A stretch of 64,000 bases of DNA from a virus (lineage: Duplodnaviria; Heunggongvirae; Uroviricota; Caudoviricetes), in IMG/VR virus record IMGVR_UViG_2718218201_000002, positions 1-64,000 of that record, one strand, 5' to 3'. A program made the translations under genes and the position numbers. The notes below the pieces were generated by a model. It was not told the DNA's origin. It saw only the letters and a list, made by a program, of their open reading frames with translations, and did no database searches. Of this stretch, positions 11,740 through 63,124 are shown in pieces (position 1 is the first letter of the stretch; each line of letters opens with the position of its first letter).

Positions 11740-12296
11740 TTTAATTTCAACAACTCTTTTAACTCTGGTTTGTCTTTTAGAATCTCATGCAACAAAGTAA
11801 TAAAACTTAACCGATATACATCTTCTCCTGAATACATATAAAGTGCCCAATCTTTAGCTAATGGTTTAATATCATGCCATTTCAAGTACTTATGTAATTC
11901 GTCAATAACAGCGGATAAGTCCTCTACTTCGTATAATTCTTCGTAGTCTTCTTCTTTTAATTGTATTGAGTAGATAGTATACCCTTCTATTTCAGAATTT
12001 CGAAATGGTGTTACCTCATATCCTGCGCTATAAAACACTTCTAACTCTTCACCACTTAGTTCTTTAAAAGTCTTAAATATTGGTATTTTCTTTAAAACTC
12101 TTTTTTCGTATTCTGTTACAATACTGTTAAACTCTCTTATGGTGTCCATAAATTCTCTTTGTTTTTCTCTTTTTTTTTGTAATTCGCCATTTAATTCGTC
12201 TCTTGAATAAATCAATCCTTCAAATCCAGCTAAACCATTCATTATATCTACACCTTTCATTAATTTATTTTTGTAAATTGTCAACAACTTTACCAA
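11736..12296 (-). CDS. hypothetical protein
   Basis: 186-aa ORF. Confidence 0.35.
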   Translation of the reverse strand: MVKLLTIYKNKLMKGVDIMNGLAGFEGLIYSRDELNGELQKKREKQREFMDTIREFNSIVTEYEKRVLKKIPIFKTFKELSGEELEVFYSAGYEVTPFRNSEIEGYTIYSIQLKEEDYEELYEVEDLSAVIDELHKYLKWHDIKPLAKDWALYMYSGEDVYRLSFITLLHEILKDKPELKELLKLK

Positions 12297-13146
12297 TAAA
12301 ACTCTCTAATACTTTTACATTAATTGAATTTCCTGCTTGTTTATATAATTGCGCATCTGCTTTAATTAGCTCACCATTCTTGTATGTATCAGCTAGTGCT
12401 TTTCGTGCCTTATAAAACTGCTCATCTGTAAAACCTTGAAGTCTCCAATACTCCAACGGAGTTAAACCTCTAATATGTATATTGCTATCAATCAAATGGT
12501 TAATATTTTTGGAATCAATTAACTTAGAATAATCTCCTGTATCAAATAATACAAAGTTATTAGTTCTAGCTGCCTTCCCGCCTTTAGCAACTAAACAATT
12601 AGCTAAGTCGTTGTGTCTTAGTACAGTCATTCTACCTTTAAAATTAGGGTTGCTGTTAGCTAAATTCAAAGCTGACTTCTTAGAAAGTGTGTATGACTCA
12701 CTTACTTTTGACTCTAAATAATCACCAATTGTACGTTGTTGCTGCTTCTTAATATTTGGGAACTCAAATTGCTTTCCCAACATACTTACAACGAAAACTC
12801 GTGGGCGGCTTTGAGCTTCTCCAACATCACGTGGGCTAATAATCTTGTAATTTGATTCATAACCCAACTTGCTCAACTCACTTAAGTAAGCGTCAAAATT
12901 GTGTTTATGATTCTTATTTAGTACAGATTTGACATTCTCCCAGATAACAATCTTAGGTTTACATTCTGATACAATTCTAACTGTTTCCCACATTAAAGAT
13001 GATTTTGTTCCACTGTTTTTATCTCCTCCTTCTTGCTTACCAGCAATACTAAAGGACTGACATGGTGAGCCGTGGAACAATAAATCAACATCTTTAATTG
13101 TTGTGCCATCTACCAATCTTACGTCGGATAAATTTTTACTTTTATC
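12265..13146 (-). CDS. C5 cytosine DNA methyltransferase body (motifs IV-X), lacking motif I and an ATG in this orientation
   Basis: Carries GSPCQSFS (PCQ, motif IV), ENVKSV (ENV, motif VI), QSRPRVFVVS (motif VIII) and GNSINVKV (motif X). The upstream in-frame extension NLSDVRLVDG is the GDI region. Motif I is encoded on the opposite strand at 13188..13352. Confidence 0.7.
   Translation of the reverse strand, partial: DKSKNLSDVRLVDGTTIKDVDLLFHGSPCQSFSIAGKQEGGDKNSGTKSSLMWETVRIVSECKPKIVIWENVKSVLNKNHKHNFDAYLSELSKLGYESNYKIISPRDVGEAQSRPRVFVVSMLGKQFEFPNIKKQQQRTIGDYLESKVSESYTLSKKSALNLANSNPNFKGRMTVLRHNDLANCLVAKGGKAARTNNFVLFDTGDYSKLIDSKNINHLIDSNIHIRGLTPLEYWRLQGFTDEQFYKARKALADTYKNGELIKADAQLYKQAGNSINVKVLESFIGKVVDNLQK
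13127..13145. repeat. left inverted repeat bounding the invertible MTase 5' segment
   Basis: gataaatttttacttttat matches the reverse complement of 13336..13354 at 17 of 19 positions. Confidence 0.5.
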
Positions 13147-13187
13147 ACAATCACCTTAAACTTACATAAGAACAAGGAGACAGAACA

Positions 13188-13352
13188 ATGAAAAAGATTA
13201 GAATGTTAAGTTTGTTTTCTGGTATTGGTGCACCAGAAACAGCGATTAAAAATTTAGGATATGACCTTGAGCTCTTAAATTTTTGTGAGATAGATAAGTA
13301 TGCTTCTACCTCATACGAAGCAATTCACAAAGAAAATAAAAGTAAAATTTAA
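13188..13352 (+). CDS. C5-MTase N-terminal fragment (motif I FxGxG and EIDKYA..Y), 54 aa with its own RBS
   Basis: MKKIRMLSLFSGIGAPETAIKNLGYDLELLNFCEIDKYASTSYEAIHKENKSKI*. RBS AAGGAGA lies 8 nt upstream. It is inverted relative to the gene body. Confidence 0.65.
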   Translation: MKKIRMLSLFSGIGAPETAIKNLGYDLELLNFCEIDKYASTSYEAIHKENKSKI

Positions 13353-13354
13353 TC
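13336..13354. repeat. right inverted repeat bounding the invertible MTase 5' segment
   Basis: ataaaagtaaaatttaatc. It covers the last codons and the stop of the N-terminal fragment. Confidence 0.5.
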
Positions 13355-13525
13355 TTCATCAAACCATGCTTCAAGTATGTTTAATGTGCTCGTGTCTATG
13401 TATAAGTTCAAATCATGGTAAGAATAATATCCAACAACATCTACATCGTCGTATCCTACTTCATCGCCATTCCAGTCTGAATGCCATCGCAACTTATTGA
13501 AATCAAACGTTTCAAAATCGAACAT
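13352..13525 (-). CDS. small hypothetical acidic protein (57 aa)
   Basis: MFDFETFDFNKLRWHSDWNG.... Below the 60-aa track cutoff. Its stop is convergent with the MTase N-fragment stop. Confidence 0.3.
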
Positions 13526-13539
13526 GACAACATCACCTT

Positions 13540-13652
13540 ATTCAATTAAATTATTTTTGTTCTTTAGCTAACTCAATGCGTTCAATTGCAACATCGTAAT
13601 ATTCTTCATACCTTCTAAACAGTCTTCATTATAAATTTTGTTAAGTTCAATC
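13540..13652 (-). pseudogene. remnant of an N6A/N4C DNA methyltransferase (start and C-terminus only; core deleted)
   Basis: The ATG overlaps the Ndt stop (ATGA). It reads MIELNKIYNEDCLEGMKNI, a canonical N6_N4 MTase N-terminus, and then after a frame change YDVAIERIELAKEQK*, a typical C-terminus. Confidence 0.45.
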
Positions 13653-14271
13653 ATTTTGAAGCACCTAGCTTTTCTAATTCCTCTAGCACTTTCTCCCAAG
13701 AAATGAATCCTACGCCATTAGTGAGTTCCAATACAGCGCCGAACACAAACTGATTAGTGCTAAATTCAGCTCTATCAGGGTCATTATAGGGCTTGCCATG
13801 CCCTTGTCTAATATCTGAGCAGTAAATTAAAACGGGTTTGTTTACAACAGTATAGGCTTCTAAAACATCGTCTTGTGTTTTAGTATCTAACTTTCTAAAA
13901 TCTACAGAATCGTATTTATCTATAATTTTCTGTGCTTGATATTTCATACCAAGAATGATTCCAAGTTCTGTAATTGTTCCTAAGCCCTCGTTTAAGATAT
14001 CTAACACATAAATATCAGATGCTTTTATTGCTTTAAAATCATTGCGTAAAATACGTTCAGCAAGTCCTTCTTGTATTGCGTTTTCTTTATCATTAATTGA
14101 TTCGTCTTTGTGTGGTGAATAAGGTGTCACTCCTACAATACCTTCTACTAAGTTGTGTTGTTTTTCACGATAATCAACCATAGCTTCATTTAGTATATGA
14201 CCACCCATATAAACTACTTTGTCTTTAATAAGATTTGCCATCATTCTCCCCCTAAAATAAGTCTTTATCAA
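13651..14271 (-). CDS. nucleoside 2-deoxyribosyltransferase-like protein
   Basis: VVYMGGHIL...DIYVLDILNEGLGTITELGIILG matches the Ndt/Rossmann-like fold signature. Confidence 0.55.
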   Translation of the reverse strand: MIKTYFRGRMMANLIKDKVVYMGGHILNEAMVDYREKQHNLVEGIVGVTPYSPHKDESINDKENAIQEGLAERILRNDFKAIKASDIYVLDILNEGLGTITELGIILGMKYQAQKIIDKYDSVDFRKLDTKTQDDVLEAYTVVNKPVLIYCSDIRQGHGKPYNDPDRAEFSTNQFVFGAVLELTNGVGFISWEKVLEELEKLGASK

Positions 14272-25587: not shown

Positions 25588-25614
25588 AAAAATCTCTCCT
25601 ATAAATGTTTACTG

Positions 25615-27118: not shown

Positions 27119-28471
27119 TTAATGCTTAATCTTTTGTGCCTTACATTGTGCTTTTATTACTTTTTCAATATCCAGCATTGAAAGGTTTCTTGCAGCATTT
27201 AAATCAGCGTTTGTTTTATGTCCACAATTCACACATTCAAACTTCTCTTGACTTTTTCGACTCTCTTTATCAATATAGCCGCATTTGTTGCATCTTTGAG
27301 AGGTAAATTTAGGAGAAACTTTTTTTACCTCAATACCTTTTGTTTTTGCTTTATTCTCAATCTTTTCTTGTAAGTTAGAATAGCTCCATCGCTTTAAAAA
27401 TGTGTCAGTTTTTGAGATTCCTGATAAATCTTCCATTTGAATAATTGTACAACGATTCTTTAGTGCTGTGTCGACAATAAATTTTGCATAACGATGATTA
27501 GTTAATTCTTTAAAATTATTAACTTTTGCTCTAAGTTTTTCCAATGGTATCAGTTTTGTACTTCTGCCGTGTCCACTTCTGTTACTAGAATGATACTTTA
27601 ATTGATTTCTCATACTGTTTCTTCTAGCTTCGATTCCGTTTCTGAACTGTTCGATTTCGCCACCATTTATATATTCTGAAACTGGAGAATCACTAACTGC
27701 CATATATGCCGCTTTTGAAATTCCTAAATCAACACCTAAAATTTTATTCGGAATTAAATCTTTGTCGTCTTTTACTTTAAGTCTATAAGCAACGATTAAA
27801 TAGTTATTTAACTTACTCCCTCTCTTTTTAACGTGAATATGACTATCTCTTAAATCATATTCACCACTTGTCAATCTGTCTAATATAACTTTTTCCTGTC
27901 CTTTAGAGCTAAGTAAAAACTTAATTCTTGTTCCCTTTCTACCTTTTCTATCAAGTTCTTTTGCTTTCTCAGGACTTAGCAAAGTCAACTCAGCATAATA
28001 TTTTCCACTTTCTTTTGTGATAAAAATCATTCTTGAGCGAATAGGAATAGGTTGATTTCTTTTGAAAGTAATGTTGCTTGCACTCCCATTTAATATTTTT
28101 TTCATGTTATTTTTTACAACTTTTTCTCCCTCACGAGCCATCGAATCAAAATGTTCTCTTAAAAAACTACCGTTGTTTAGCTCTTTATCTTCTTTAGCTT
28201 GTTCCATATTATAAGCTGAAAACGTTTTACCATATCTCGTTTTAAAATATTTATCATATGTCCCTTTACCATGAACGTTTTCATATTCTAATTTCTCAAT
28301 TACATTCATATAAGTTCTAGTAGCCGCTTTATTTTTAACTCTGAAACAAATGTAATCTAAATCTCTTAACACTTTACCAGCAAAGTCCCAATCTCCTTCA
28401 TCAACACCTACTGGTTTAATTAGCTTAATCCCGTACGATTGCACGACATATTTTTCTTTTTCACCTTCCAC
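27119..28471 (-). CDS. tnpB: TnpB (IS200/IS605 OrfB / IS1341-like) RuvC-type RNA-guided nuclease family protein
   Basis: 450 aa. RuvC-I ILGVDLGISKAAY, RuvC-II IQMEDLSG, zinc finger CNKCGY...CVNCGH, RuvC-III NADLNAARN. GTG start after a GAGGTGA RBS. No tnpA is present. Confidence 0.8.
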   Translation of the reverse strand: MEGEKEKYVVQSYGIKLIKPVGVDEGDWDFAGKVLRDLDYICFRVKNKAATRTYMNVIEKLEYENVHGKGTYDKYFKTRYGKTFSAYNMEQAKEDKELNNGSFLREHFDSMAREGEKVVKNNMKKILNGSASNITFKRNQPIPIRSRMIFITKESGKYYAELTLLSPEKAKELDRKGRKGTRIKFLLSSKGQEKVILDRLTSGEYDLRDSHIHVKKRGSKLNNYLIVAYRLKVKDDKDLIPNKILGVDLGISKAAYMAVSDSPVSEYINGGEIEQFRNGIEARRNSMRNQLKYHSSNRSGHGRSTKLIPLEKLRAKVNNFKELTNHRYAKFIVDTALKNRCTIIQMEDLSGISKTDTFLKRWSYSNLQEKIENKAKTKGIEVKKVSPKFTSQRCNKCGYIDKESRKSQEKFECVNCGHKTNADLNAARNLSMLDIEKVIKAQCKAQKIKH

Positions 28472-35822: not shown

Positions 35823-38135
35823 CTATGACTTCTGTTCGTAGAACTCATCTCTCAATCTAATTAAATCGCTATCTCTATCTGTTTTCTTTCCATTTTTCTT
35901 ATACCAGTAATAAAAATCTCTTACTTCATGATTACTTTGTAAAATAAATTGTTTTGGTGAGTTGCCAGCATCAATCTTACCAACGAATTTTCTAATATAT
36001 TTCCAATCTTTATACCATTTAGTTTTTATCTTGAGCATAAAGCCTTTACTATCTTCTAGTACCCAGCCTTCATGTTTTACATCTAAATTCTTAATCTGTG
36101 TCTTATACCATTGAAAAAATTCTTGCCAGTTATCGAAAGTAAACTCTAATTCCTTATGTTCTAACCCAATCATACCGGCTAACTCTCGACTATAATCTTC
36201 ATTTACTCTTTCAAATTGCAACTGGTTCTTTACAACATCTAAAAGTACAACTTTGCTTCTTTCATATTTAACAACATGTGGGTCATTCTCAACATCAATT
36301 ACTTCAAACACTGCTGATGCGTCATACTCTTTAAGTTCATTTTTTAATAGCTTTAATTTATCAGCGCTTAGAGTATTCTCAACAATATCTTTAAACCACA
36401 ACGCATATTGATTATCACTAGATGCTTTATGGGTTTTACTTTTTGAAGCATAAACTATCTCATTAACATCATTATCATAAAACATGATTCCTAAGTAGCC
36501 ATTTTCTTTACGATATGCTTTTACAGGAAACTTTAATTTATCAATAAGTTTATCTAACTTGTTTTCTTTGTTTTCATCGATGTTAAAGAATTTATTGTAA
36601 GCTCGCCCCTTAACTACGCTACCTATTCCATCATCTTTAACAAATAATCCTCTTGCGTGCACCGCTAACTGATTCCACTTACCGCTACTAAATAGTTTCG
36701 GTGTGAAATTAACAGAGTAAACGTTATCGTATTGATTTTGAACTTTAATATATTTTCTATCACTTTTTGCTGCATCAATAAATTGTTCTACTGTTAGTTC
36801 AACGTCCAACTTTTCTGTGTAATCATCTGAAATTAACCATTTTGAATCAAAAACATCGTTTTTAATTTCATGAGTTTCTATTTTATTCTTGACAAACGGA
36901 TTTCCTTTAGTGATAGTAATGGCTCTCAAATGACCTCCTTTCTCAACTCTACCTTCCAAGTTGATTGAGCTTGCATCTGCGTCCAATGGAATGCGATAAA
37001 GATTTCTATGACCATGTATTTGAGTAATATAGTTTTGAATCATGTAAAAATCATTTTCTGTCCATTCGTCATCAATTTCAAATTCATATCCACCAATTCC
37101 ATTGATTAATTGATTAGTAGAGACAAGATTTAAATGTGGTACCATATTCGGTAAAATACCACCATGAGTCACAATGTATTGAGCGCCATTTAACTCAAAA
37201 TATAAGCATTGTAACAATTTTTTCAGAATCGGTTTCACTCGGTCTTTTGTAATTTCAGCGTCTAAAAATTCCTTTAATGTCGTTTGAATGAATCCACGAG
37301 CTTTAAAATGCTTATATATCTTGTTGTATACATCTTTCTTAACATTGCCTAAACTATAACCAAGTTCATCAATTAATTCATCATATACTTTTACATAATT
37401 TCTCAAATGTCTTTCATGATTACCTTCAATTAAAAACACGTTTGGAAGGTTGTAAATAGATTCAATAAGCTCAAACACTTTCACATTTTCTAAGCCTCTA
37501 TCGAACAAGTCCCCTACAAAAACATAAGCCGTGTTTTGATTATCTGCAACTTCTTCATAAGTTATGAGCTTACTGAGAGCTGTGTAACAACCATGAATAT
37601 CCCCTATTACTTTAACCTTGTCAAACTGGTTGAAATCTTGTACTTTCCATTCAATTTCTTCTAATAGTTCTTCTGGTTTTAACACTTTGGCAAAACTGGG
37701 GATATTCTCGTGTTTTAATCGCTTATGAATATTCTCAATAGCTTCTTCAGGAACAAACTCATATTCTTTTCTTTGCTTATTTCTTTCCAAACATGTTTCT
37801 AAAGGCGTATCAAAGTTAACCACATATGTACGATAACCATAACTAGCTCTTAATTGCTTATACTTGTTAATTAATTTAGCTGTTGAATGAGTGGCGTCAA
37901 CAATAATAAAATCACCATTTTTCATACGCTCTTCAAGAATCTCAAACAATAATTTCCACACCTTACCGTCGTTTTCTTGAGACGTCACGAGTTGACCTAA
38001 CTCATTAACTACTGGTGCTGAACATTGTCTACGTAACACGTCAGGTGATAACGCAAACGGTTCTAATCCATTTTCTTTTAAAAAGGTTGACTTACCACTA
38101 GCTGGTGCGCCTCTAAGTAATACTAACTGTTTCAT
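35823..38135 (-). CDS. trifunctional polynucleotide kinase / metallophosphoesterase / ligase-like RNA repair enzyme (Pnkp-like)
   Basis: N-terminal P-loop GAPASGKST (Pnk kinase-like). Central calcineurin-type phosphoesterase (GDIHGCY, GDLFDRG, GNHE). C-terminal nucleotidyltransferase-like with KENG (motif I KxNG). This domain order matches bacterial Pnkp. Confidence 0.6.
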   Translation of the reverse strand: MKQLVLLRGAPASGKSTFLKENGLEPFALSPDVLRRQCSAPVVNELGQLVTSQENDGKVWKLLFEILEERMKNGDFIIVDATHSTAKLINKYKQLRASYGYRTYVVNFDTPLETCLERNKQRKEYEFVPEEAIENIHKRLKHENIPSFAKVLKPEELLEEIEWKVQDFNQFDKVKVIGDIHGCYTALSKLITYEEVADNQNTAYVFVGDLFDRGLENVKVFELIESIYNLPNVFLIEGNHERHLRNYVKVYDELIDELGYSLGNVKKDVYNKIYKHFKARGFIQTTLKEFLDAEITKDRVKPILKKLLQCLYFELNGAQYIVTHGGILPNMVPHLNLVSTNQLINGIGGYEFEIDDEWTENDFYMIQNYITQIHGHRNLYRIPLDADASSINLEGRVEKGGHLRAITITKGNPFVKNKIETHEIKNDVFDSKWLISDDYTEKLDVELTVEQFIDAAKSDRKYIKVQNQYDNVYSVNFTPKLFSSGKWNQLAVHARGLFVKDDGIGSVVKGRAYNKFFNIDENKENKLDKLIDKLKFPVKAYRKENGYLGIMFYDNDVNEIVYASKSKTHKASSDNQYALWFKDIVENTLSADKLKLLKNELKEYDASAVFEVIDVENDPHVVKYERSKVVLLDVVKNQLQFERVNEDYSRELAGMIGLEHKELEFTFDNWQEFFQWYKTQIKNLDVKHEGWVLEDSKGFMLKIKTKWYKDWKYIRKFVGKIDAGNSPKQFILQSNHEVRDFYYWYKKNGKKTDRDSDLIRLRDEFYEQKS

Positions 38136-53129: not shown

Positions 53130-54143
53130 TTAGGGCTTATTCACTATTACTACTCCATATAATTCTTGCAAAGCATCTGTATACTGTTCACTAAACCTAG
53201 CAACCGTATAAGATAAGGAATTTTTAAAAATATGCCTATTATATCTTCTCATTACTTTTTCTATTTTTATGAAATCTAATTTTCCTTTTTCTGATAGCAA
53301 GTACATATAATGTAATATACCAGAATCAATGACGTTAGTGACGCTTGAGATATAATTATTAGTTAAATCTTGTAACACCCTTATTCGTCTGTATACTACT
53401 TGCTTATCAATTTGTTCTGTTGTGGTATCAGTAAACTCGACATTTCTAAAAATATGGTTTCCACTTATCACTTCTTTTGCAGGTGTTCTAGAACTAGGGT
53501 CACCATTCTTGGTATAATAGATTGTGGCTTTATACGAGCTCTCCATGTCGTCTAACAATAGTTCAGGCACTTCGACATAGCGTTCAATTGTTTCACTTTT
53601 TTTGTCATTTAAAAGTTTTAATTTATAATATTGCTCATTATTAGCAACATGCGTTGGATTATTTCTGGCTTCTTTAACATCTTCAATGGTTAAATTGATT
53701 AACTCACTATAAGCTGTTCCAGAAATACCATGAAAAATTGCTGAAATTAATGCTCTATCACTAGCATTATAGAAACTACTAACATGCAATAAGAATTTTT
53801 CGTACGTGAAAAATTTTTGTTTATGTTTGTACACAAACTTATCAATCTTGTCGTACGTAAACATTCTAAATAAGTTAATGTTAGACAGCCTATCCCCTCT
53901 TTCAATTGCATAGTCAGTATATTTTTTAGCAAATGTTAAATAAGTTAATAAAGTGTTCTTACTGGACGAATAGATGTTGTAAAGCAAAATTTCTATTTCC
54001 GTAGTAGTAAAATTATACAAATCAGTATCGAACTGTTGCTCTACTTTACTACTATTGTTGAACAACGCAGTATATACTCTTACTTCATTTTCACGCTCTA
54101 AAGATTGCAAGAACTGCTTTTTATACAAGCTATTATAAAACAT
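53130..54143 (-). CDS. hypothetical protein
   Basis: 337 aa. Its ATG overlaps the stop of the upstream ParB-like gene. Confidence 0.45.
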   Translation of the reverse strand: MFYNSLYKKQFLQSLERENEVRVYTALFNNSSKVEQQFDTDLYNFTTTEIEILLYNIYSSSKNTLLTYLTFAKKYTDYAIERGDRLSNINLFRMFTYDKIDKFVYKHKQKFFTYEKFLLHVSSFYNASDRALISAIFHGISGTAYSELINLTIEDVKEARNNPTHVANNEQYYKLKLLNDKKSETIERYVEVPELLLDDMESSYKATIYYTKNGDPSSRTPAKEVISGNHIFRNVEFTDTTTEQIDKQVVYRRIRVLQDLTNNYISSVTNVIDSGILHYMYLLSEKGKLDFIKIEKVMRRYNRHIFKNSLSYTVARFSEQYTDALQELYGVVIVNKP

Positions 54144-55456
54144 TACTTCACTCTCGCTTTCTCAAACAAGATTTTAATATTTTTGATTGCTTCGCTTTGT
54201 ACTTTCTTAATACTTTGATTTGCCATTTCAATTCTGAAGTTGACCTCGTTGTTTTTTAGATAATCAACTGCTTTATGAGCTTCATCTATAAATTCTTTAA
54301 TCGTTAAACCACTTTCGACATAATATTTAAGAAAGGCATAGATGTAAATACGAGTATTAAAAGTATTATTAATTTCCCGTAAGTCTATATAAGCTAAAAT
54401 TACTTCTGAAACTTCTTGAACAGTGCTTACTTGGTCTCTTCTAGTCTCAACTTTAAATAATTCATCAATGTACTTACTTAATTCAGAAAATGCTATTGAA
54501 CCCCCACCAGCTGTACTATTTGTGGTTTTAATAACATCTTCAAAAATAGCATCTTTATCTTTTATTGCCTTAACAACTTTGGCGCCTCCAGATTCTTGTT
54601 GTAGCTCTGCTACTCTATTTTTTGACCACGGTGTCGCTTTACTATGTTGTGCTTGCCATTTGATTGCTTCAGCTGTAGTAAAGTTACTAAAAACTACATT
54701 GAATTCAAAATTGATAGTTGGGTTTTCACGATAAGCGTTTTGCGCTGCTAATACACGGTGAAAACCATCGATAACATCTAATCTTGTTCCCTCAGTAATC
54801 GTTAATGTATAGCTCTCAGGGTCATAAATTAATTCATCACCATTCACGCTCGTCATAGGAGCGGCGTTAAAGAAAAGTGTACTTTCTTTTAAACCATCTT
54901 CTAAAAGCAACTTTTCCATTTCTCGAATATTCTTTTGATTCAACGTTGGCTTTCTAATAATTTTTCCAATTCGTTTTTCCAATTTTGATTCCCGTTGAAT
55001 ATCAAAGTTATAATTGATTACTTTAGAATCAACAAACTCTGCAATTTGCTTAACACTTATTTTTGTACTGTATACATTGTTTACTTTAACAACTGGTTGA
55101 AAATCATATGGGAAAGTAATTTTATCTTGTTCTAAGAATGCATGAAAATCAAATTGTTTTGCCTCATTAATTTCCCCAGCTGTTAGATACTCTTGTATAC
55201 CGTCTTCGTACCCCAATACTTTAAAACTTTCCAAAATGAATAACGAGATTAGGCGAATATCAGTGGTGTCAAAAAAGTTATCATCTAGTTCACGATTCAA
55301 GAAAGAATGTGTGATGCCGCTAGGAACTCTATATTTTCTTTCCATTTCATTAGCAATTTTATTAATCAATTTACTGGTATCTTGATTTTTTAGAAGTGTG
55401 ATAACTTCTCTAAAAGCCTTGAATTTATTATTCATGCTTTCCCTCCTTTTTATCAT
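54143..55456 (-). CDS. ParB/Srx-superfamily (DGxHR motif, DndB-like) nuclease-domain protein
   Basis: 437 aa with DVIDGFHRVLAAQ in the central region. Confidence 0.4.
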   Translation of the reverse strand: MIKRRESMNNKFKAFREVITLLKNQDTSKLINKIANEMERKYRVPSGITHSFLNRELDDNFFDTTDIRLISLFILESFKVLGYEDGIQEYLTAGEINEAKQFDFHAFLEQDKITFPYDFQPVVKVNNVYSTKISVKQIAEFVDSKVINYNFDIQRESKLEKRIGKIIRKPTLNQKNIREMEKLLLEDGLKESTLFFNAAPMTSVNGDELIYDPESYTLTITEGTRLDVIDGFHRVLAAQNAYRENPTINFEFNVVFSNFTTAEAIKWQAQHSKATPWSKNRVAELQQESGGAKVVKAIKDKDAIFEDVIKTTNSTAGGGSIAFSELSKYIDELFKVETRRDQVSTVQEVSEVILAYIDLREINNTFNTRIYIYAFLKYYVESGLTIKEFIDEAHKAVDYLKNNEVNFRIEMANQSIKKVQSEAIKNIKILFEKARVK

Positions 55457-55692
55457 TTTTACTTTTTGATTTATCGATTTTTATATTTTGGTTTCTCTGA
55501 TTTTTGTTTAATTTGTTTTTTGATTTCCAGAAACTGTTTATAACCATCATTTGAATGAGATTATAGCTTCACAACTCATGTTTTTAATAGTTAAGAGTTA
55601 ATTCAAATTAATAGTCATACTATGCATAGCTTAGTCACTATTTACATTTAACCACAAAATATAATTATTGTCTATGCAATTATCAGTATAAT

Positions 55693-56790
55693 TTATTTTA
55701 TTTTCGTTAATAAAGCTAACTCTTTTTTTAACATAAATTGCATTGCTTCTGGTAAATTGCTTAATACCTCAATTAGCTCAGTTTTACTATATTCAGAAAA
55801 TCTAATATCAGCAGTGTCAATTTTCTGTTTGTTCGATATAGCACCTTGAAATGCTTGTTTATTATCCTCAAGATAAATTTGAGTAGTGTTAATATTCGCA
55901 TGATTTCCTACTTGTTTAGCTATTTGAATATCTTTGGTAGCTTCATAGGCGTAGTTTACTGCTCCTTTTTTGAAACTATGAAAAGTGATATTTCTATTTT
56001 CATACCCTAAAGCCTTTTTAGCCCGCTTCATCATTTTATACCTAAGTTCACTAGAAAAATTGAAAATCGGCTCATTTGAATTCTTATCAAGTTGCAATTC
56101 ATCAAACATTGCTGATGCGAATTCTAATGATAAACTTTTAATAAATTGTTTCTTCCCTTTGTCTATACCTTTTAATATAACCTCTCCTTTCTTCCATATA
56201 AATGATTGAGGAGTGATATTGTTTAATGCTTCAGCACGAATACCGGTATCAAACGCTAAGGCAGTATAATAGTATTTATCGATTGCTTTTTCTTTCTCAT
56301 TCTCTTTAAACCAATTGATAAACTCAAGTGCTTCGTCATAGCTCAACACTTCATATGAATTTTTAGATGTTTTTAACTTTGCTATATTGTTGATACCCAC
56401 AAGGTCAATTTCATACCCGCTGTTATATAGGAATTTTGCGAATTCGATTATAGCTGACATCTTACGATTAATAGTGCTTGGTTTTAATTCACTTTTAATT
56501 AAGACACTTCTATATTGAATCAACTGTTTTCTATTCATAGTGTGTACGACCAAATCGACTTTAACATTCTCAGTTCCATATATTTTATTAAGGAATTGTT
56601 TTAAGTCATTTAAATATGCTGATTTAGTGCTTTGTGAATTAGCTCCTGCTTCATCAGCGAATTCATTAACTAAACTCAAAATGCTATTTGTGACACTATT
56701 ATTACTCATAATATGATTTTCTAGTCTTATAACGTTTGCTGTCATTTTTCCTTCTCTCCATTCTTTTAATCTTGCATTCGTACGTTTCAT
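55693..56790 (-). CDS. tyrosine recombinase / phage integrase
   Basis: Box I TGIRAEAL and box II FHSFKKGAVNYA...GNHANINTTQIYL (catalytic Tyr). The N-terminus has a SAM-like core-binding domain. The second conserved Arg appears as Lys. Confidence 0.6.
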   Translation of the reverse strand: MKRTNARLKEWREGKMTANVIRLENHIMSNNSVTNSILSLVNEFADEAGANSQSTKSAYLNDLKQFLNKIYGTENVKVDLVVHTMNRKQLIQYRSVLIKSELKPSTINRKMSAIIEFAKFLYNSGYEIDLVGINNIAKLKTSKNSYEVLSYDEALEFINWFKENEKEKAIDKYYYTALAFDTGIRAEALNNITPQSFIWKKGEVILKGIDKGKKQFIKSLSLEFASAMFDELQLDKNSNEPIFNFSSELRYKMMKRAKKALGYENRNITFHSFKKGAVNYAYEATKDIQIAKQVGNHANINTTQIYLEDNKQAFQGAISNKQKIDTADIRFSEYSKTELIEVLSNLPEAMQFMLKKELALLTKIK

Positions 56791-62527: not shown

Positions 62528-63124
62528 TTAAAAACTCATAGTAAAAATGTGTGCATTTTTTTGATTAAGCCCGATATATCTATATTCAGCATTTAACAAA
62601 AGGTCATGCCCTTTTGCCTCAGCGTCAAAGTATATTGTTAATTCTTCAACATAAGGCGGTTCAATGCTCGTTGCCTTTAATTCGGGCTCTAAAATGTTTT
62701 CAAAATACCATAATCCGAGCGCTTTTTTATAGTTATCAGAATAAAATTTTGAGCTTAAAGTGACTGAGTAAAAACATGCGTTGATTCTTTCGTTTTCGTC
62801 ATCAAACATGTCTTTGATTTCTTTTGCAATTTCAACGTCAATGCCAGTGTGGTTATTTACATAACTTACACGATTAGCCATTGTTTGCAATTCCTCGATT
62901 GAATGAAACTCACTAATGTTAAACAAATCGCTTTCATAATCAGAAATAAACCATTCATTCCCCTTGCTAGCAATTGCGTCAATATATGCGCTCATTGCTT
63001 CAAATTCAGTTAAAGCGTTAAACCATTTACCAACTAAATTACCGGCGTTGTATTCAGCTAAATCGCTGATGAAAAGATTAAGCTGAATGTTGTTCTGTGT
63101 GTTGTTTGTATTTTGATTTTCCAT
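62528..63124 (-). CDS. ardA: ArdA-family anti-restriction protein (DNA mimic)
   Basis: LFISDLAEYNAGNLVGKWF...ISDYESDLFNISEFHSIEEL aligns with Tn916 ArdA (VYIANLGKYNEGELVGAWF...IHDYELPFTVDEYTSIGEL). Acidic. Confidence 0.55.
   Translation of the reverse strand: MENQNTNNTQNNIQLNLFISDLAEYNAGNLVGKWFNALTEFEAMSAYIDAIASKGNEWFISDYESDLFNISEFHSIEELQTMANRVSYVNNHTGIDVEIAKEIKDMFDDENERINACFYSVTLSSKFYSDNYKKALGLWYFENILEPELKATSIEPPYVEELTIYFDAEAKGHDLLLNAEYRYIGLNQKNAHIFTMSF

Follow-up and report, generated by a model that had tools for sequence, protein, structure and literature searches.

Is a prophage methyltransferase gene that lies in two pieces on opposite strands simply broken, or is it one position of a switch? 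The question is raised by a C5-cytosine methyltransferase locus in the early/replication module of an SPbeta-like Staphylococcus pseudintermedius prophage, which we analyzed in a stretch of 64,000 nucleotides (hereafter the window; positions 1 to 64,000 of IMG/VR record IMGVR_UViG_2718218201_000002). An initial annotation of this DNA had read the locus as an invertible cassette in its OFF orientation, and alleles with the predicted junction and a contiguous gene, here called ON, do exist in the same species. With a probability of roughly two in three, we regard the locus as a genuine and recurrently used inverton of the "partial intergenic" type, which serves as a heritable, reversible switch and stands OFF in the window. 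The argument turns on the following features:

12265..13146, minus strand: methyltransferase body with motifs III-X (PF00145 profile positions 44-321, 171 bits)
13129..13145, no strand: repeat arm inside the coding sequence, 17 nucleotides (plus strand TAAATTTTTACTTTTAT, gene strand ATAAAAGTAAAAATTTA)
13146..13335, no strand: putatively invertible interior of 190 bp with leader, AAGGAGA, ATG at 13188 and codons 1-49
13188..13352, plus strand: detached N-terminal fragment, an open reading frame (ORF) of 54 amino acids (PF00145 profile positions 1-45)
13336..13351, no strand: upstream repeat arm, 16 nucleotides (plus strand ATAAAAGTAAAATTTA, gene strand TAAATTTTACTTTTAT)
13349..13525, minus strand: acidic ORF of 58 amino acids, function unassigned, stop codon within the upstream repeat arm

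Across the locus the window is 100% identical to the S. pseudintermedius chromosome CP016072.1 (L015; in the following, L numbers denote loci and P numbers proteins). A megablast search of the locus alone against the phage collection returned zero matches, and larger queries matched only SPbeta-like staphylococcal phages in a patchy manner at 73-84% identity. A scan of contigs with one genome per species yielded only distant non-staphylococcal methyltransferases, which are uninformative on the switch. The genes around it all lie on the minus strand, in the order nucleoside deoxyribosyltransferase, 58-amino-acid ORF, methyltransferase body and Band_7 gene; the 58-amino-acid ORF matched no Pfam and no NCBIfam family.

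The two halves of the gene were located as the initial annotation had described them. The body carries GSPCQSFS (motif IV with PCQ), ENV (VI), QSRPRVFVVS (VIII) and GNSINV (X) in canonical order, and its called ORF (12265-13116, 283 amino acids) has only a TTG start without an evident Shine-Dalgarno sequence; an in-frame TAA lies four codons upstream of 13146. The 54-amino-acid ORF on the opposite strand contains LSLFSGIGA (motif I) and EIDKYA (motif II, EID), is preceded by the ribosome-binding site AAGGAGA and receives its stop codon from the repeat arm. Its exact product is present in 162 blocks of the assembly collection. In OFF loci with a T5 repeat (L011, L013, L016-L018, L020) the N-terminal ORF measures 65 instead of 54 amino acids, because the additional T shifts the frame across the arm, and the T4/T5 difference thus gives rise to two sizes of small "hypothetical protein" beside the 283-amino-acid methyltransferase.

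No single ORF in the window covers the whole C5 domain, as the N-terminus and the body are found on opposite strands. The gene becomes contiguous only after inversion of the interior in silico, or in ON relatives such as P0001. The inverted sequence encodes 342 amino acids that match PF00145 from position 1 to 321 in a single stretch (203 bits) and are 99% identical to the natural contiguous S. pseudintermedius protein P0001 over the full length. P0001 itself aligns end to end with M.HhaI (4-325 against 12-323) and scores 194 bits against TIGR00675, and the enzyme is, as far as its sequence tells, an M.HhaI-like orphan type II C5-cytosine methyltransferase. The expectation that re-inversion restores a complete methyltransferase in frame was thus borne out, whereas two details of it were not: the junction reads NKSKN instead of IKVKN, and the protein has 342 instead of about 345 residues. 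The OFF orientation creates no alternative fusion, and a second 5' cassette as in shufflons is not present. Neither a terminator nor a promoter-like site above shuffle expectation was detected in the segment and its surroundings, so that the ON/OFF effect should come about through the split of the coding sequence and the loss of translation signals.

The decisive evidence comes from relatives that carry the other orientation. The first 20 loci were all split, but they had been retrieved with the OFF-specific 54- and 283-amino-acid proteins as queries and are hence a biased sample. A search with the reconstructed protein retrieved P0001, a natural protein of 342 amino acids with exactly the predicted junction (...HKENKSKNLSDVRLVDG...). 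It belongs to a cluster of 160 members at 90% identity, in which the ON forms P0001, P0122, P0134 and P0132 (342-352 amino acids, 99% identity) stand next to P0121 and other OFF forms of 283 amino acids. Among the fetched S. pseudintermedius loci, complete genomes included, 13 have the contiguous 342-amino-acid gene and 23 are split, the latter also in the complete chromosomes CP016072.1, LR134263.1 and CP087468.1. ON and OFF loci share their gene neighborhood, and in oriented loci the segment between the repeats of one group is the plain reverse complement of that of the other (reversed relative to the window in L021-23, L027-36 and L026). Junction patterns searched in IMG/VR were discarded as a measure of orientation, since the interior-arm junction is kept in both states and both patterns matched the same OFF contig.

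Two comparisons show that orientation changes on an otherwise constant background. The loci L027 and L031 (ON) are identical to L011 and L017 (OFF) over 2083 nucleotides upstream, both arms, the interior and 101 nucleotides downstream, i.e., over more than 2.4 kb apart from the orientation. Furthermore, B1 and B2, two haplotypes of the interior distinguished by one single-nucleotide polymorphism within it, have each been found ON as well as OFF, and this four-gamete pattern requires at least two inversions. The same change is found in a second lineage with about 73% protein identity, the S. hyicus type (species name of its protein P0003 from NCBI): L026 is ON and the IMG/VR contig L050 is OFF, with the same arms and boundaries. 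An S. chromogenes prophage (L024) and the diverged S. pseudintermedius types L006/L049, L012 and L025 are OFF. In every lineage examined the boundaries of the flip are identical, the flip itself recurs in at least three lineages, and both states on shared haplotypes with the same boundaries point to recurrent inversion instead of a fixed split. The initial annotation had itself named a fixed ancestral split and an out-of-frame junction as outcomes that would speak against it; we found the junction in frame, and both states on identical haplotypes and again in the second lineage. As a safe minimum, the comparison of haplotypes suggests three independent flips, two in S. pseudintermedius haplotype B and one in the S. 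hyicus type.

The repeat arms fall exactly at the two coding breakpoints. The initial annotation had described an imperfect repeat of 19 bp, and without gaps 17 of 19 positions do match between 13127-13145 and 13336-13354, but it is better seen as a 17-nucleotide arm facing a 16-nucleotide arm that lacks one T, and relatives carry a perfect 17-bp repeat. The coding arm encodes (D/N)KSKNL and was unchanged in all 38 repeat-bearing loci examined as well as in the window, and the upstream arm overlaps the TAA stop codon of the 58-amino-acid ORF. Loci of haplotype B have the perfect 17-bp repeat with an upstream arm of T5. In the window and several other lineages T4 stands against A5, which leaves an inner perfect core of 12 bp. 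As this T4/A5 form is found both ON and OFF in the S. hyicus type, the repeat of the window should be able to flip as well, and a crossover inside the inner core preserves the reading frame. In an alignment of 10 lineages, all turned to the ON orientation, the upstream arm TAAA(T)TTTTACTTTTAT does not vary, and the non-coding DNA on either side of it is strongly diverged in the types of S. chromogenes and S. hyicus. The 58-amino-acid ORF is degenerate or absent in S. hyicus-type loci, yet the arm is retained there.

Orthologs without the upstream arm, i.e., the S. haemolyticus type (28 blocks), the P0004 type and the gene of phage PT94, are only ever contiguous. An apparent covariation in PT94, with the coding arm ACAAAAACAAAAATTTG and an upstream match of 14/17, was rejected, since what matches upstream is an intrinsic terminator's T-tail and probably a low-complexity chance match. 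Within the window, the 17-mer has no further copies besides the two arms and a weak 15/17 match at 25602, and no other convincing inverton-like repeat was found in the 64 kb.

If the split state were a dead end, the gene should decay in it, and this is not what the alleles suggest. Inversion in silico restores an intact ORF of 340-342 amino acids in 23 of 25 OFF loci. The sole lineage that was OFF and then decayed is L006 (9085-9894) together with L049 (LR134263.1 type), which has a premature stop at codon 198 after the in-silico flip and in which the body is called as two ORFs of 117 and 127 amino acids. Between lineages that were all sampled OFF, the ratio of non-synonymous to synonymous substitution rates (dN/dS) is 0.04-0.14; for the window and L025 it is 0.12 at a dS of 0.36. 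The type-A group, OFF in 11 of 11 loci, has 19 synonymous and 9 non-synonymous codon variants, against a neutral expectation of about 80% non-synonymous ones (P = 7e-8). Judging from these substitution patterns, purifying selection on the gene is strong, also in lineages found only OFF. The haplotype network of the switch region places the ON-bearing haplotype B within a set of OFF lineages, so that at least one flip from OFF to ON is implied. Intact OFF alleles, low dN/dS and the nested position of haplotype B together suggest that the gene is ON often enough for selection to act and that the flip is reversible; parsimony and purifying selection thus argue for flips from OFF to ON as well.

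Some observations weigh against the reading as a reversible switch and have to be set beside this evidence. A repeat of at least this quality (as good as 17/19, arms 50-400 nucleotides apart) occurred in 3 of 300 dinucleotide shuffles of the 700-nucleotide region (about 1%), and around seven comparable repeat pairs exist in the 64-kb window. The repeat, by itself only modestly unusual, therefore gains its significance from the exact match to the coding breakpoints and from the comparative evidence. Synonymous-site conservation of the coding arm was dropped as independent support, as the same 17-mer also stands in the P0004-type ortholog, where it has no partner. Neighbor-joining trees imply 7 orientation changes for 4.2 kb of downstream flank and 6 for 2.1 kb of upstream flank, but these prophages are mosaic and such tree-based counts are inflated. 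Groups of loci without any difference in their flanks always share one state, although some members may derive from the same isolate, which speaks against an extremely fast switch. The ON loci of S. pseudintermedius all belong to a single local haplotype (B), whose repeat is the perfect T5 form. The two orientations are known from separate assemblies, and an assembly displays only the majority state of its culture. In principle, repeated one-way events from ON to OFF could yield all data; the OFF alleles could be recent one-way derivatives of unsampled ON alleles, with recombination importing the variation on which selection had acted. Finally, no invertase adjoins the switch in the precomputed Pfam annotation (up to 10 kb on either side), and both tyrosine recombinases of the window, described below, also occur in phages of S. 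haemolyticus and S. epidermidis that carry an inverton-less ortholog of the methyltransferase.

A first alternative is a recurrent, unprogrammed loss of function, which we consider rather unlikely. The repeat would then have arisen by chance and be prone to inversion by template switching during replication or by annealing through phage recombination proteins, with neither a dedicated recombinase nor adaptive reversibility; a costly methyltransferase, for example through self-restriction by nucleases that depend on 5-methylcytosine (5mC), would cause the OFF state to be selected again and again. This fits the lack of an adjacent invertase, the recombinases of the window being generic core genes and the repeat by itself being not very improbable, as well as the excess of OFF (162 blocks with the 54-amino-acid product versus a few dozen ON contigs), the later premature stop in L006/L049 and the concordant state of zero-distance loci. 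It is hard to reconcile with a non-coding upstream arm that is perfectly kept in prophages of three species while its flanks diverged, and that persists in the S. hyicus type although the adjacent ORF is gone. Nor does it account for OFF alleles that are intact in 23 of 25 cases with a dN/dS of 0.04-0.14 even within OFF-only groups, or for the flip from OFF to ON, at least one, that the network implies for haplotype B. In addition, the perfect core of the T4 type with 12 bp is very short for homology-driven exchange, yet both states are found in the S. hyicus type.

A second possibility is that OFF is a functional state, in which the 54- and 283-amino-acid parts assemble in trans and the inversion alters regulation. 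Natural two-subunit C5 methyltransferases such as M.AquI do exist, and the N-terminal fragment retains its own ribosome-binding site and ATG. However, this fragment opposes the direction of the operon without a promoter-like site above shuffle expectation, the body starts with a TTG lacking a Shine-Dalgarno sequence, and the gene is interrupted after motif II and before motif III, within the fold for S-adenosylmethionine (AdoMet) binding, unlike in known split enzymes, which makes a split enzyme very improbable. Even less credit is due to a single ancestral inversion that became fixed as a pseudogene, with every relative split: the 20 split loci of the first, biased retrieval seemed to speak for it, but it is refuted by contiguous alleles of 99% identity on identical local haplotypes of the same species, and both the two states of the S. 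hyicus-type lineage and the purifying selection on the gene are contrary to it. Wrong orientation of the small segment through an assembly or sequencing artefact is practically negligible, since apart from the segment being short and repeat-flanked nothing specific favors it, the repeat of 16-17 bp is shorter than assembler k-mers, and OFF is found in dozens of independent assemblies, among them the three complete chromosomes named above, and ON in at least 13.

How would the switch work? In the reading that we prefer, a reversible inverton, recombination between the 16/17-bp inverted repeats would flip the 190-bp segment, with one arm covering the upstream ORF's stop codon and the other within the methyltransferase coding sequence, where it separates motif II from motif III. 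The operon would encode the complete 342-amino-acid enzyme in the ON state. In the window the interior faces away from the gene body, and in this OFF state the AdoMet-binding N-terminus would be detached and backwards, leaving a body that has neither a ribosome-binding site nor motifs I-II and presumably no active enzyme. The recombination may be catalyzed in trans by a site-specific recombinase, or it may happen by template switching at short repeats during phage replication.

For catalysis in trans, two genes of the window are candidate invertases, both of them core genes of SPbeta-like phages:

53130..54143, minus strand: MrpR-like tyrosine recombinase, candidate invertase only
55693..56790, minus strand: Xer-like tyrosine recombinase, candidate invertase only

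Both are located 40-43 kb from the switch and are core in SPbeta-like phages of Staphylococcus, Mammaliicoccus, Bacillus and Geobacillus. The initial annotation was right in that no serine invertase is adjacent, but it had counted a single tyrosine integrase in the window. No serine recombinase (PF00239) was found among the scanned window ORFs of at least 170 amino acids (27-64 kb and 116-703), nor in the precomputed Pfam annotation of the neighbors up to 10 kb on each side of the methyltransferase. The locus also differs from the Hin/Gin type, with its adjacent serine invertase and 26-bp hix/gix-like sites, in that the repeat comprises only 16-17 bp, which we take to be unlike the hix consensus. 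The two recombinases flank a DndB-like protein (54143-55456, minus strand; a weak match below the Pfam cut-off), and the pair (53130-56790) lies in the middle of the early region, not at a prophage end.

DNA methylated at C5 is shielded from many restriction enzymes of type II and is at the same time exposed to type IV enzymes that depend on 5mC. A flip maintained as a heritable and reversible switch would yield both methylated and unmethylated phage progeny, the former suited to hosts with type II restriction and the latter to hosts with 5mC-dependent type IV enzymes of the SauUSI kind. SauUSI is widespread in staphylococci; about 90% of S. aureus strains possess it, and its cleavage site is S5mCNGS (PMC6532042). 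We therefore tentatively propose a form of bet-hedging, in which lysogens would release both kinds of virions and the segment would be flipped by an SPbeta-type tyrosine recombinase in trans or recombinase-free during replication. The excess of OFF in lysogens is consistent with ON being costly in this host.

Known inversion systems resemble the locus in part. The closest are gene-altering or "partial intergenic" invertons (Milman et al. 2023, PMC9881135; Chanin et al., bioRxiv 10.1101/2023.03.11.532203), which likewise have short repeats with one arm in a gene and one outside, rewrite coding sequence, favor restriction-modification and methyltransferase genes and are found in both orientations in natural populations. 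The cases described there mostly swap cassettes such as specificity domains, whereas our locus has no alternative cassette and is a plain ON/OFF arrangement for an orphan C5 methyltransferase in a prophage, with no invertase nearby. Neither text mentions Staphylococcus or C5/cytosine methyltransferases, with search terms that differed slightly between the two papers. Classical switches such as fimS/FimBE, Salmonella hin and Clostridioides difficile RecV share the binary state, the short repeats, a segment of about 0.2-1 kb, heritability and a recombinase able to act in trans from a distance, but there the inverted DNA is a promoter or leader and the gene itself stays whole, while here the coding sequence is split and the segment has no evident promoter.

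Phasevarions and inverting type I hsdS systems are comparable in that a DNA methyltransferase is switched heritably, with the potential for epigenetic subpopulations. Phasevarions depend on slippage of simple sequence repeats in mod genes, and hsdS systems shuffle specificity domains with an adjacent tyrosine recombinase; both are chromosomal, in contrast to the phage-borne locus described here, which inverts its 5' end. The G segment of phage Mu and the C segment of P1 (Gin/Cin) are phage-borne as well, have one arm in a coding sequence and give two kinds of progeny. They span about 3-4 kb, encode alternative C-termini of tail fibers and need an adjacent serine invertase, an enhancer and Fis, as opposed to a segment of 190 bp, no detected serine recombinase and a 5' end that toggles between ON and OFF instead of alternatives. 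While phase-variable methyltransferases and invertons are well known from bacterial chromosomes, our full-text literature searches found neither an inversion-switched C5 methyltransferase in a phage nor the present locus, and a phage-borne ON/OFF inversion that breaks an orphan C5 enzyme within its catalytic domain did not appear in the searched literature.

The surroundings of the switch vary in their methyltransferase content. The stretch from the deoxyribosyltransferase gene to the 58-amino-acid ORF is a variable "methyltransferase slot", which in the window holds only the first 17 or so codons of an N6/N4 DNA methyltransferase (13568-13699, minus strand; MIELNKIYNEDCLEGMK). A full gene for 235-254 amino acids is located at the same position in L001, L002, L005, L006 and L025, and HNH genes are found there in other loci. 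A second C5 methyltransferase lies upstream of the switchable gene in S. chromogenes L024 (3953-4966, 337 amino acids), and another one directly downstream in the S. haemolyticus type L067 (4019-5542, 507 amino acids), so that the methyltransferase complement differs widely among related prophage lineages. In the loci L001-L036, the genes for the DNA polymerase III alpha subunit and the large subunit of ribonucleotide reductase are either whole or split into 2-3 pieces, interrupted by HNH or GIY-YIG ORFs (e.g., L002 15567-19851; L011 15347-19030), which suggests mobile introns or inteins of variable presence between similar prophages. The window also encodes a TnpB-family RNA-guided endonuclease of 450 amino acids (27119-28471, minus strand; NF040570 with 137 bits, PF07282), an RNA-repair-like fusion of kinase, phosphatase and RNA ligase with 770 amino acids (35823-38135, minus strand; AAA_33, Metallophos and RNA_lig_T4_1) and an ArdA antirestriction protein (62528-63124, minus strand). 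The fusion protein and ArdA are part of a broad counter-defense repertoire of the same prophage.

For annotation, the consequence is that many entries of a 283-amino-acid "DNA cytosine methyltransferase" and the unnamed 54-amino-acid ORFs beside them would be the halves of one switchable gene. If the switch is indeed active in the phage life cycle, it might provide a function for the tyrosine recombinases that SPbeta-like phages conserve and that are so far unexplained. The marking of transducible DNA on its way out of S. pseudintermedius, a veterinary and zoonotic pathogen, would be affected too. The switch would then represent a counter-defense at the population level, by which the phage hedges between restriction systems that attack unmethylated and those that attack methylated DNA.

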